A program made the position numbers and the translations under genes. The notes under the pieces are model-generated. The model was given only the letters and a program-made list of their open reading frames with translations, was not told the DNA's origin and did not search any database. Shown here piece by piece: positions 20,001 to 26,000 of a DNA stretch of 64,000 bases. Position 1 is the first letter of the stretch. Every line of letters begins with the position of its first letter. The stretch lies in the NCBI GenBank assembly GCA_951804945.1, contig OX638154.1, positions 43,772,001 to 43,836,000 on the forward strand, written 5' to 3'. The DNA is from Podarcis cretensis. Lineage: Eukaryota.

Positions 20001-23000
20001 GTTGGTTGAAACTATAGTAGCCAGTCCAGTATATGCTGGAAATTATGCCAAATGAAAGAGGGCACAATTTCTCCTATAATCCTTGGTGACCTCAAGCTAA
20101 TGCTGCAGAGATTAATTGGTGACTTCTCTTCTCTTCTCTTCTCTCCCCCTCCCCTTTCTCCATTTCTACCTGCTCCACAGGTGACTGTGTGCTGGATGGA
20201 AGAGACACCAGGGAATAACAAGAAGTCCCTCTCTCCCCAGGCTGAGCACGCAGGCATCCGGACTTACTTCTTCAGTGCAGAGAACAACGAGGAGCAGGAA
20301 TCCTGGATTCAAGCCATGGGCGAAGCTGCCCGGGTGCAAATCCCACCTGCTCAGAGGTCAGTTGTTGTTGTTGTTGGGGGGAATCTATGTAGCATGCGGT
20401 CCAAAACTATAAGGGTAACCAAATGGTGCTTTCTAGATGTTGTTGGACTATAATAGTCAATGTCCTGGACCATTGGTCATGATGGCTGAGGCTGATGGGA
20501 GTTGTAGTCCAATAGCATCTGTTCTGAGAGATCTCAGTTGGCATTAGCTATGTCTTTGGAAAACCAGTAAAGTAAGAGCACCCCAAAAATTTTGATCCAC
20601 CCCCCTTAAAGCATCAAAGTAGTCATCATGGCAAAAATCAGAACTAGGCTAGATTTCCTTACAGTCCACTGTATAATCTCCCATTTTTACGTTATCTTTT
20701 TATTATCCCCACCTAAACCAGGAGGGTGCCCTACTAACTTTTGATCAAAATAATGCAAGGAAAGCAGATCCTGTCATCTGTTGCAGTAAATTATGCTTTA
20801 ATTTTTTATTACTTTGAAATTTTATTTTATGGGTTAGTATTGTTTTCATTTTGAATTGGGGAGGCACCATAATCTTTTAGTGCTTGGGACAACTGAAGGT
20901 CTTAGTCCAGCCCAGGGTGTTCTATTGTGTTCAAGTCACATAGTTTATCTGCCTCTCCATTAAGATGTTTCCTCTGTCCTTTAAATTTGTGAGACCAAGT
21001 CATCGTTATAAATAAGGTTCACAGATCCTGCAGAAAAGTATGGAAACTCTCTAAAATAGGCAACATCTAAAAGGCATTGAGGCTCTTTGAATGGGATGAC
21101 AGGAAACATAGCTTTGGAGATCTTTAAGCAACTTGAAAAAGAAAGCTTATTGGGAGAGTGCAATGTCTGGTTCCCCCCTCCAGGGGCCATATCAGAGCTG
21201 GAAAGTTAGCAGTAATGTACTTTCAGGAGGCGAACTAGAATCATTCCTAGGCTAGTGCACATTTTCTATGTTGCTCGGAATGAGAGCCATGACCGTTTGT
21301 GGCCATTTCTACTTTCCCATGCTTATCAGGCACGAGAAGACTGATTCTGAGAACATCCCTCCCAGCAGGAACCATCAGCATCACCACCACCGCGGTGTCC
21401 CTACCAGAGAGGCTGCCAAAACTGAGCCAGAAGCCAAGACCAGAGGCGAAGGAGACGGGCGTGGCTCTGAGAAGATTGACAGGAAAACAGAGCGAGCCGA
21501 GAGCAAGAAGGAGCCTCTGGTGAAAGCCAACGGCATTGGCAGCCAAGAAATGCCCTCTGAACCCGGAAGCCCTTATCCTGATGCTTCCCGTCTGCCTGCT
21601 GGAGTGGAGAGGCCCACTCAGCCAAATGGCTGGCAGTACTCATCTCCTAGCCGGCCAGGCAGCATGGCCTTCCCACAGCACGATGGTGAGAGTGCTATGC
21701 CTCGTCGGAGTTTTGCTCCACGCACCAATCCTGAGAAGATTGCCCAGAGGAAGAGCTCCATGACACAGCTGCAGCAGTGGGTGAACTTGCGCCGTGGGGC
21801 TCCACCTCCTGAGGATCTCCATAGGTGAGGTGATTCAAGCTAGGCGTGGTTATAGCTTTTCTGCGAATTAAATAAGGGAGGAATCCCACTAAACACAAGG
21901 CATCACATCTGCATTATGCACTTATGGGAGTCTTAAGAGGTATGGCTTCCCACCTTCCCCCAAGGGTCCTGGAACTGTAGCTTGTTAAGGACTACATTTC
22001 CCAGGATACTTTAGGGGAACCCATGACTCTGAGGGCTCATCCACATTTACCTTTTGCCCCTTGTTTTCTAGGTGCAGGTCTGCGCTTTAAAGCTCCATGT
22101 CCAAACACTTCCGCCCCTTTTTTTTGCCACATCGCTTTCCCTATGAAGTCCCATTCTTTAACACTGAATCAGAACAAATGGCAATTTCAGTTTTCCGCAG
22201 ACTACCATTTGCTCTGATTCGGCAGTAAAGCGTGGGCTTTTGTGGGGAAAGAAGTGGTTTTAAATGTATGGTGTGGATGTAATCTGAGAAAAGGTGAGAA
22301 AGTGATGTGTACACTTCACGTTTAAATCAATATAGTTATTGTGATTCTCCCCTCTTCTCCCAACCAGAGAGTCCTAGGAGGACTGTAAGCGCTGAGGACA
22401 TTTCGTTTTTAACTGTCCCAAACCATGTGGCAATTCCACATGAGAGTTGTAATATTTGTGAAACGGATTGGCCCAGTTGTGTGGAGGAGGCTGTTCATCA
22501 CAGCGCTACGATTCTGCTGTGCTAGCATGGCTGGCTCACATGATACACAGTTACAGAGACCTCTTGTTCAACTGCTTCCATTGGGAAGTGTTTCTTATGA
22601 CCTCCACATGGAGGCTGCAATATTTGAATCTCCCCTGACAAAGAACCAGAGTTTTAACACAGCAGGCATCATGGCTTTCATCAGAATCGAACCCTTTAAT
22701 CCTCAGTATGCTTTTGATTTCTTTTTTGAAAAGAAAAAGATACACACTTAATACTATGTTACTCAAGCAGGCAGCTCATTTGCAAAGAAAATATGTGCAG
22801 CCTTAATCATTAATAAGGATAATAATTCATGACACACCAGCAAACAGCATTAATAGTGAGAAGATATTGTGCCATCTCTGCTGTTTAATCTGCAGTATAG
22901 TTGGAGGGTAAGAGGGAACCACTAGGACGTAAGTATGAAAAATAAGATCTGTACTAAATTCATATCTGTCAGAGCTGCCCCTAGGTCCCAGCTCACAGAG

Positions 23001-26000
23001 GACCAACGCCAGGCTGTCGTTATGTACAAAAGTCTTTATTGAGGTTCAGTTTCCATTTCAAAGCCGCAGCGCGCAGCTCTACGTCTTAAACCCTAGACCG
23101 GCGAAGTCCCGTCTGAATCTCCTCCCCTCTGACACCAGTTTAAGATCCTAGCCCTGCTCCACCTTTTCCGCTGCTTTCTCCTCCTCTGGGTCCTCCTGCC
23201 CGCTGGGGCATCCCCCTTTCTGGACTCTTCTGACGCTGAGTCGCTTAACTCCTCCCCCTGCCTCCGGCGGGCTTTAGGACCCGGTTCCCAATCCTCATTC
23301 TCTGCTGTCCCGCGCTCCTGTACATTTGAACTTGCCTCTCGCGCCAACCCAGTGACCTTCCTCCTGACCGTTACACTACTTCTGTCACTGCTTCCCTCTT
23401 CCGGGATACTGGCCGGATCTGACCTCCCCTCCGTTGTCTGACTCTCCGATGGAGGTGTGGTCAGCCCTGCCTTATCTTCTCTCCCTGGTGGGGAATCCAC
23501 TGGCCCCGATACCTGGGACTCTTCCCCCCCACTATGCTCTGGTGGGGAAGCTGGTCCTGATTTCCAACTGCTGCTCTGGGAGTCCCTGCTGCCCCCTTGC
23601 TCCTGGGGCGTTCCCCTTGAGAACCCCCTTCCCCTGGCCACTGGCGCCCCCTTCTGTGAATCTTCCGATTCGCTGGAGAGGCTCATGGAATCCCTCGGGC
23701 CACTGTCATCTTCTCCTACGCTGCCCTCAGATTCTTCCCCTTCGCTCTCCATCTCCCCTCCCCTGTGCTTCTGCTCCTGCACCCCTGACAATATCCTTTG
23801 CTCTAATAACTGCTATAATAAGAAATCAGTCGAATCAAAAATTTAAAAAGGAGTGGAAATGTTTTGATGAATATATGGCAAAATATTGCTCAAAAAAGAT
23901 ACGCTAATATGCCTAGATTAAAATGTGAAGTACTGGATGGAAGAAAAATTAGTAAGGAAAGATAATAACAATATATAGATGATTTGAGAAGATTGTAGAA
24001 TGCAAAGATTATTGTAAATTGTATAATGTGGAGGAAATCGAGTGGGGGCGGAGGGAATTGGGAGGAAGGAGAAAAGAATAATATGATGGACTGAGGAAAT
24101 AGAAATGTAAAGGTATGGGGGGATGGGGAGGAAATGGTGTTGGCTTTGGCACACCTGTATTGTAAACCAATAAAAAAAAGAAAAAAGAGGGAAATAAGAA
24201 AAATAAGATCTGCACTAGATTTATATCCTCTGTGGATTTTGGTACAGAGATAGACAGATAGGTAAGGTAGGGCAGATGATGCTAAAATTGCTTTGCAAAC
24301 TCGGGGTTTGCATTCGTCGTCCTCATTCTTTCCTTCTGGCCATCTAGCCCCACCAGGTTCTACCCGATGTCCCGAAGAGTCCCTGACTACTATCCCCCCT
24401 ACTCACCTCAGTACTCTGAAGATTACCAATACTACCCTCCTGGGGTGCGTCCCGACAGCATCTGCTCTATGCCTGCCTTTGAGCGTGTGAGCCCTCAGTG
24501 GACTGTCGACGACAAGCGCCACTCCTTCCGCAACAGCGGCTCCTACCAGCTTCGGGACTGGAAAGAGCAGCCAGGCTACGGCAGGCAGGATGTTCCCATC
24601 TGGATGTCAGGCCCGACCCGGCCGCCCGTGTACTATGATGAAATGGATGCCGCCTCAGGCTCCTTGCGCAGGATGTCCCTCCAGCCTCGCTCCCGGTCGG
24701 TCCCCCGCTCACCGAGCCAAGGCTCCTACACCCGAGCCAGAGTGTACTCCCCTGTCAGGTCGCCAAGTGCCCGCTTTGAAAGAGTGCCTCCCCGGAGTGA
24801 GGAGATTTATGCGGAGCCGACGACATACATGATGAGGCGATCGGTCAGTTCACCAAAGGTAACCCTCCCTCGCGGTCTCCGCTCCTACCCTCGGGGCTTC
24901 CTGCCACTCTTTGGGGGAGTACTGAAACTGCACACTGAGGGAATATTAGCACAGTCTTAGTGACCTAATCATTACCTGTGTTTGTATATGCTGTGTACTG
25001 AGACTGAGGAGCATTAGGAAGGGTGAGGGGAAATTACCATGGCAGGAGTGGGAAGGCACACTAGGTTTGATGAAGGTGAGGAGAGGCAGTCATGGGCAAC
25101 ATAGGTTTTTTCTGTTGAGGGCTGCATTTCCTCAATTGATTACTTGTTGTGGCTCACGTGCCAGTGTTGGGCAGAGCCAGAACTGATGATGGCTAGAGCC
25201 AGAGACAAAACTATTCTTGATTAACTGATCTGGAATGGAGACCACCCTGCTTCCTCATGGTTTAGAATTCCCGGTTCAATGCATATCTAATTAGAAGCAA
25301 GCCCCACTGAGTGTGATGGGGTTAGGCAAAGGTAAAGGTAAAGGGACCCCTGACCATTTGGTCCAGTCGTGGCCGACTCTGGGGTTGTGGCGCTCATCTC
25401 ACTTTATTGGCCAAGGGAGCTGGCGTACAGTTTCCGGGTCATGTGGCCAGCATGACTAAGCCACCTCTGGCGAACCAGAGCAGCACACGGAAACGCCGTT
25501 TACCTTCCTGCTGGAGTGGTACCTATTTATCTACTTGCACTTTTATGTGCTTTCGAACTGCTAGGTTTGCAGTGATGGGGTTACTTTCAAATAAACAGAG
25601 AACTTTTTTTTGGTACCAAAGACCAATGCAGCCACTGCTCCAGAAAGGAAGTAAGAGTAATTCTTACCGATATATTATTCGACAGTTTAGGGAGGAGAAA
25701 AGTCTTTCCCCCAAGCCATACAACCAGAGAAGAAGGTTTTAAAACATACACATATTAAAGAAAGTACTACATCTTCCATTTCTGTGTTCTGAAACAACAC
25801 AGAAAGAGAGTGAAACACAAATGCCTGAAAAAAGGGGAAAATGGATAAAAAGCATGGATGGTAGAATGGGGCAGCTTCAGGAGTCAACAGAGGAGCACAT
25901 AATATGAAGTCACAGATTGCATGTTTTCCTAAGGCCACAGTTTGCTCACCCGTGAGCTAGAATAAAACCTTTATTCTTAATCTCTGACATGTCAGGGCTT

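Follow-up and report, generated by a model that had tools for sequence, protein, structure and literature searches.

The open frame of a young lizard solo LTR is very probably the integrase tail of a chromovirus Pol

A solo long terminal repeat (LTR) of the lizard Podarcis cretensis is almost filled by one open frame which, judged from sequence, is very probably the last ~230 codons of a chromovirus Pol, that is, an LTR-encoded C-terminal tail of the integrase. The LTR lies in a window of 64,000 nucleotides (assembly GCA_951804945.1, contig OX638154.1, positions 43,772,001 to 43,836,000), to which unlabelled coordinates refer. An earlier note on this DNA had taken the frame for a separate U3 accessory gene of the sag, nef or Rev kind, a proposal that did not hold because the frame is continuous with Pol, its ATG inside the LTR is not conserved and the parent is a Gypsy element lacking env. 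In our view the frame likely forms the distal portion of a disordered extension of integrase, which would aid nuclear import and chromatin tethering. The features on which the argument first depends are as follows.

22967..23790, minus strand: solo LTR, TG...CA, of the long-LTR type of Ty3/Gypsy chromovirus family A, assigned from its own copies and full-length relatives
23093..23788, minus strand: open frame of 231 codons plus stop, very probably the LTR-encoded C-terminal tail of Pol/integrase
23750..23752, minus strand: in-frame ATG taken as the start by the earlier note; of the 6 outside relatives covering this position, 5 do not have it

The assignment was supported by continuity with Pol. 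In unbroken copies of family A, a single frame runs through protease (PR), reverse transcriptase (RT), RNase H (RH), integrase (IN), SH3, a chromo-like domain and the tail, crosses the polypurine tract (PPT) and all of U3, and ends at the stop of the window frame. Of the eight full-length family-A elements, two hold one unbroken frame each, of 1591 and 1545 codons, as far as this LTR stop, four more have frames of 965-1055 codons that reach it, and the remaining two are broken at the junction. Among 30 loci recovered by a search with the internal end, 4 show no interruption of the frame between the SH3 motif of integrase and the stop, which lies at LTR nt 697. Among UniRef entries, the Podarcis muralis Pol P0007 (1498 aa) carries the same tail at its end, with 65% identity over the whole 575-aa query; P0006 has most of the tail, and P0008 and P0009 end out of frame. 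The Met inside the LTR is replaced by T, I, I, L and T in the five outside relatives that do not have it. Length differences between subfamilies net to multiples of three within the frame (210 versus 232 codons).

Two further families in the genome show the same layout. Family B, with 55% Pol identity and a 408-nt LTR, has Pol frames of 1333-1354 codons that stop 24 nt past its predicted self-primer start, while in family C (44-47% Pol identity) Pol stops at LTR nt 355, just ahead of a TATA-like box. A basic stretch ends Pol in all three families, and in families A and B the residues L-x-W lie over the TATA-like box. Other features of these families were also recorded. Family B is very young: the paired LTRs of its elements are 99.8-100% identical, and a Pol frame of 1333 codons is open in many copies. 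In family C the chromodomain is canonical and Pol ends in RRSARL, and one copy carries gag and pol in a single frame; an element of this family (L161) sits within a tandem array with a period of ~186 bp, possibly a satellite.

The U3 part of the frame is under purifying selection at the amino-acid level. We compared real copies only, with the mutation classes CpG, transition and transversion controlled, and 66 of the 84 copies examined were open. Across these 66, the dN/dS ratio (omega) was 0.93 for variants found in a single copy (n=129), 0.46 for those shared by 2-4 copies (n=78, z=3.6) and 0.50 for those in 5 or more (n=149, z=4.3), the z values being approximate; in the other two sense frames, shared variants gave 1.05-1.57. 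A copy set not picked by the LTR frame gave 0.49 (n=165, z=4.7). The earlier note had suggested looking for dN/dS below 1, and this was found in the Pol frame, where net dN/dS between the long (826) and short (760) LTR types, estimated for four group pairs at two kappa values each, ranged from 0.29 to 0.55; in the other frames it was 1.0-2.0, except in the antisense frame with the same third positions. The LTR part of family B, which lacks a shared Met, had an omega of 0.39 (n=99, z=4.9), falling to ~0.24 at its basic end. In family A the constraint is moderate and patchy, and strongest at both ends of the LTR part.

Fixed differences between the long- and short-LTR subfamilies were unevenly spread: RT-RNase H has 57 such sites and U3 has 53, but the integrase core has only 3 and the chromo-like domain lacks them. 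This pattern suggests recombination between the two subfamilies.

A frame of this length is seldom reached by chance. In dinucleotide shuffles of the whole LTR, 231 or more open codons occurred in 9 of 3000 and 219 or more in 15 of 3000, which is the composition-matched comparison that the earlier note had proposed; shuffles of the first 700 nt gave 15 and 28 of 3000, respectively. The two other sense frames of the LTR carry 6 and 9 stops. A Pfam search of the 219-aa ORF found no family at E 0.1, the ESM Atlas returned no usable match for it and matched the tail only to chromodomain clusters, under 0.8, and Tandem Repeats Finder found no repeat within the LTR. Another reading is that the frame is tolerated read-through, kept open because U3 is purine-rich and T-poor, and encodes a protein sequence with no role of its own. 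This reading agrees with the 82 T in the first 700 nt, the low complexity, the lack of Pfam and usable Atlas matches, the near-neutral middle segments described below and the tolerance of a 21-codon length difference. It is largely refuted, however, by the confinement of the synonymous excess, in two families, to the Pol frame and the antisense frame that shares its third positions, and the rarity of such frames in shuffles, the stops in the other sense frames and the low omega of the family-B basic end also oppose it, and we hold it to be very improbable.

Several observations weigh against the assignment to Pol, or against a role for the tail. In family A the frame is kept at 13 of 43 junctions ahead of the LTR; the other 30 are out of frame through length changes in three G-runs (short by 1 nt in 17 cases and by 2 nt in 12, and long by 1 nt in the last one). 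A further in-frame Met lies in the PPT of this family (GGMDVR). Constraint is weaker in the LTR part than in RT-RNase H when both are measured on the same 8 elements (omega 0.57 versus 0.24, with z=2.1 for the LTR part), and two middle segments are near neutral (0.92 and 0.73). Shared variants are not independent events, which makes the z values approximate; the copy sets are top-scoring matches, about half of the LTR set coming from protein searches that favour open frames; and differences between 5' and 3' LTRs were too few and too mixed to serve as a neutral control. Finally, work of the tail in nuclear import or chromatin tethering, which we favour by a little, is read from composition and from analogy.

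Out-of-frame junctions could in principle reflect a second protein product. Junction length was common to the nearest neighbour in 9 of 27 cases, with a shuffle mean of 7.8 (p=0.39; two loci had no readable junction). The lengths are thus not shared beyond chance, indicating that they arise copy by copy, which fits slippage of reverse transcriptase or assembly error. In family B, 24 of 25 junctions are in one frame. One alternative is that slippage at the G-runs yields two integrase forms, a short one that stops 20-25 codons inside the LTR and a long one that has the whole tail, both present in working elements. The frequent junction length changes in family A and the short ending of P. muralis P0009 fit this idea, as does one element in which both LTRs are 2 nt long at another G-run, suggesting that some changes are real. 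Short forms make no lineages, however, family-B junctions are stable and assembly error in homopolymers is possible, and we regard two forms as unlikely.

The other candidate product is a stand-alone U3 accessory protein, started at the ATG in the LTR or the PPT and made from a separate RNA or by re-initiation. MMTV sag, lentiviral nef and Rev/Rex are retroviral genes in their own right, each with its own spliced RNA and start codon. The lizard frame resembles them in coding within U3 and in its Arg-rich stretch, but differs in that it reads as the last part of Pol, in a Gypsy element that lacks env. An accessory protein could accommodate the purifying selection, the Arg-rich end, the PPT Met of family A and the 30 of 43 junctions that are out of frame with Pol. 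It is nonetheless hard to square with the continuity of the frame with Pol, seen in UniRef Pol entries and, for all three families, in unbroken copies, with an in-LTR ATG that relatives do not conserve, with selection in family B despite the lack of a shared Met, and with out-of-frame junctions that lineages do not inherit; we judge it very unlikely. A search for expression listed no RNA data set with this sequence. In four presumed-RNA runs, contigs span the LTR as well as most of the internal region and gave no GT..AG ends among the joints listed, though such contigs cannot show transcription, start sites or lack of splicing. One contig, from run X1, omits 147 nt of the LTR frame (23294-23442), a multiple of three, without GT..AG ends, and is probably a shorter LTR variant.

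Having weighed these alternatives, we return to the frame as the tail of Pol and to the element that carries it. The remaining features of the window element are given below.

23791..23795, minus strand: upstream copy of the target-site duplication (TSD), GATAT
22962..22966, minus strand: downstream copy of the TSD, GATAT
23540..23560, minus strand: first SGP..SPP unit, SGPASPP
23486..23509, minus strand: second SGP..SPP unit, SGPVDSPP
23372..23434, minus strand: ~63 nt (21 codons) found in the long-LTR type, which the 760-bp type and outside relatives P0001-P0003 lack without a change of frame; breakpoints are approximate
23135..23197, minus strand: basic tail end RRTQRRRKQRKRWSRARILNW, with omega ~0.45 for shared variants
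23139..23143, minus strand: TATA-like TTAAA of inferred function; it spans the L-N codons of ILNW, and the predicted start follows ~29 nt downstream
23104..23114, minus strand: 11 nt forming the predicted self-primer and the predicted RNA 5' end; in full-length copies, the bases directly after the 5' LTR are complementary to them
23035..23040, minus strand: AATAAA polyadenylation signal, 53 nt downstream of the stop of the frame

Much of the earlier description of this element was borne out. The LTR is 824 nt long with termini TGTC...GACA, and GATAT on both sides forms the perfect 5-bp TSD already reported. It had been called a young solo LTR of a lizard retroelement, and the insertion is indeed young, since the 40 genome candidates scored, out of 3549, are all 98-100% identical. 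The long frame, put at about 232 codons, begins at LTR nt 3 and has 231 codons before a TAG stop that ends at 23093; translation from the ATG at 23752 gives the 219 aa described, with the C-terminus RRTQRRRKQRKRWSRARILNWCQRGGDSDGTSPV. The duplicated SGP..SPP units are present, and the stop, estimated at about 55 nt ahead of AATAAA, lies 53 nt from it, with TTAAA (23143-23139) in the last codons. As to the question raised there of whether the frame is kept across copies, 21 of the 30 nearest copies have it open from the LTR edge, and in the other 9 it is broken by a stop or a change in G-run length. The window copy is 2 nt short near LTR nt 30, a shortfall seen in no other of the 30 copies fetched, and the first ~10 codons of its frame are therefore out of register with its relatives.

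Two observations concern the insertion site. A separate ~360-bp repeat, with many copies at 89-96% identity (190 candidates), lies close beside the LTR at 23926-24284. A 41-nt stretch at the insertion site (22926-22966) recurs at 83% within that repeat (24187-24227).

By its sequence features, the parent is an env-less Ty3/Gypsy chromovirus of the Tf1/sushi type with predicted self-priming. Two LTR matches bound a 6.7-kb element with gag and pol, in which Pfam identified retrotransposon gag, Ty3 capsid and CCHC together with protease, RT, RNase H, H2C2, rve and SH3_Tf2-1, and in full-length relatives Pfam found no env between pol and the 3' LTR. These full-length elements, which the earlier note had proposed to seek for classification, place the family in Gypsy and not among endogenous retroviruses. 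The pol order in family A is PR-RT-RH-IN, as in Tf1/sushi chromoviruses, GPY and SH3_Tf2-1 were found at the integrase C-terminus, and a purine tract directly precedes the 3' LTR. For Chromo PF00385, family A scored a weak 16.3 bits against a cut-off of 25.1, family B 40.7 and family C 57.5. The bases after the 5' LTR complement LTR nt ~679-689 and not a TGG-type tRNA site; the complementarity is exact over 11 nt in 7 of 11 elements and covers 9-10 nt in 3, the boundary being mis-called in 1. The self-primer region folds as a stem, which overall is no better than shuffles (z -1.1). Self-priming from a primer-binding site (PBS) complementary to the RNA's own 5' end is described as a signature of the Tf1/sushi group (PMC4600332; PMC6317226). 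From this complementarity the RNA of the window element is predicted to start at 23114, ~29 nt after TTAAA, and the frame would then cover all of U3 and likely end ~21 nt into R. The earlier placement of the ORF in U3 stands for its span, and its end, past the predicted self-primer start, likely falls in R.

If the frame is the tail of Pol, its expression would follow from the position of U3. Genomic RNA would carry U3 at its 3' end only, and the tail would thus be translated from full-length RNA alone, always within Pol. A solo LTR would not express the frame from its own promoter, because the frame lies upstream of the predicted transcription start, and the tail sequence would be inherited passively by every LTR copy. 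After proteolysis, the integrase would keep ~390 residues beyond the chromo-like domain. The tail is mostly acidic and Ser/Pro-rich, with the last 30 residues basic, and this acidic, Ser/Pro-rich composition makes it likely to be disordered. Short motifs would stand at its two ends: outside the LTR, FxGF just downstream of the chromo-like domain, and within the LTR a basic end that contains Trp and overlaps the TATA box. The basic end may be a nuclear localisation signal (NLS) or an element that binds nucleosomes or DNA; the basic ends may resemble NLS motifs, the nucleosome-binding motif of HMGN (RRSARL in family C) or CENP-C motifs.

A role in import or tethering is likely by analogy with two known systems. 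In CRM group A, the LTR-encoded integrase end holds the CR targeting motif (PMC3059260), and in Ty3 the C-terminal domains of integrase contact TFIIIB (10.1101/2021.07.27.453949). These centromeric retrotransposons of plants have an integrase frame that enters the 3' LTR (PMC3059260), which makes them the known parallel of lizard families A, B and C. They differ from the lizard elements in priming by tRNA-Met and in carrying the CR motif where a chromodomain would stand (PMC3059260); the lizard elements have a self-priming site and keep a chromo-like domain, their LTR part being an extra tail over all of U3. With vertebrate Tf1/sushi chromoviruses (GyDB V-clade: Sushi-ichi, Amn-ichi/ni/san; PMC6317226 Table 2), the lizard elements share a gag CCHC, PR-RT-RH-IN order, GPY/F, SH3_Tf2-1, a chromo or chromo-like domain, the lack of env and a self-complementary PBS, but the lizard Pol goes on for ~390 residues after its chromo-like domain, and the LTR encodes 232 of these. 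Ten chromodomain Pols from the same searches (P0012, P0015-P0024 less P0017) end 113-165 residues after GPY/F, and P0017 ends at 173. A literature search with partial coverage, thin for subscription papers and Repbase notes, found no vertebrate chromovirus Pol that runs into the LTR, and the layout may already be recorded there.

The proximal part of the tail contains a second candidate motif, mapped in loci of families A and B.

L124:5860-5961 and L122:6318-6419, loci of families A and B: candidate helix-linker-FxGF block after the chromo-like domain

This ungapped block of 34 residues is common to both families and lies ~140 residues before the LTR part (12 copies). F8, F13, T16, F22, G24 and F25 are invariant and in register in all 12, with an 8-residue linker. 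FxGF follows the chromo-like domain in 28 of 32 family-A copies and occurs twice in 19 of 23 family-B copies, and the motif blocks have omega 0.20-0.30. The form S/E-x-F-x-G-F is present in P0006-P0009 and in Anolis P0011, where it reads DIFAAPSDEESFEGF; of 20000 shuffles of the tail, 107 contained it for family A and 387 for family B, and a fuller pattern, written after the data had been seen, was present in 3 and 42, respectively. The motif was absent from family C and from the ten chromodomain Pols checked. Searching the lizard's own genome with the Anolis tail found no family matching the distal part, and families B and C were matched through the SH3 region.

Motifs of this kind are known in host proteins. 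The TND-interacting motif (TIM) is described as a helix, an acidic or Ser/Thr linker of 8-16 residues and FxGF, the last being needed for LEDGF and HRP2 (PMC9987994), with the consensus S/E-x-F-x-G-F (PMC7337902). The motifs of the TIM/IBM proteins DPF3a, JPO2, IWS1, MLL1, PogZ and JIL-1, which bind LEDGF/p75 and HRP2 (PMC9987994, PMC7337902, 10.1101/624023), are resembled by the lizard block in its hydrophobic stretch, a candidate helix, in its 8-residue acidic or Ser/Thr linker and in FxGF, and P0007 and the DPF3a peptide have STFHGFD in common (PMC7337902). What sets the lizard motif apart is its predicted place in a retrotransposon integrase. Within partial coverage, a literature search on FxGF in retrotransposon integrases yielded a single paper, which deals with JIL-1/JASPer (10.1101/624023) rather than with the integrase of a transposon. 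The host genome has LEDGF-domain exons at two loci. A complex prediction for the 34-residue family-A motif and a vertebrate LEDGF domain (P0025, residues 43-135) scored 0.06 against a mark of 0.34, in a run made without alignments and with a tool unproven on peptides.

The families also differ in where their copies lie. Among the matches listed, with second LTRs of the same element dropped, 50 of 147 short-LTR and 14 of 40 internal family-A matches were within 1 Mb of a chromosome end, which puts 34-35% of these older or full-length matches where 2.5% would be expected. In family B 9 of 150 matches (6%) lay as near to an end, in family C none of 22, and in the youngest long-LTR set, to which the window element belongs, 5 of 39. 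Among 40 end-proximal family-A copies fetched, two pairs share a junction and 16 are flanked by family-A sequence; given the few shared junctions and these flanks, most are likely separate and often nested insertions. Targeting and slower removal both fit the pile-up of family A at chromosome ends, and either may account for it. Tentatively, and with the balance leaning somewhat against it, we suggest that the squamate chromovirus integrase C-terminus could be a long modular tether, in which the proximal motif would dock on LEDGF/HRP2, the reader used by lentiviral integrases, through a short linear motif, and the distal U3/TATA-box part would add a basic nucleosome-binding or NLS end. The modules might then set insertion sites, for example those of family A at chromosome ends.

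An integrase end carried in the LTR would explain why lizard solo LTRs look like intact genes, and annotation pipelines already call such pieces hypothetical proteins (P0004, P0005). It would carry the CRM layout over to vertebrate chromoviruses, in which the same bases would serve as promoter and as coding sequence. Should FxGF bind LEDGF/HRP2, a retrotransposon integrase would have reached the lentiviral host tether by motif mimicry, and integration targeting by vertebrate Gypsy elements could be tested directly with short peptides.

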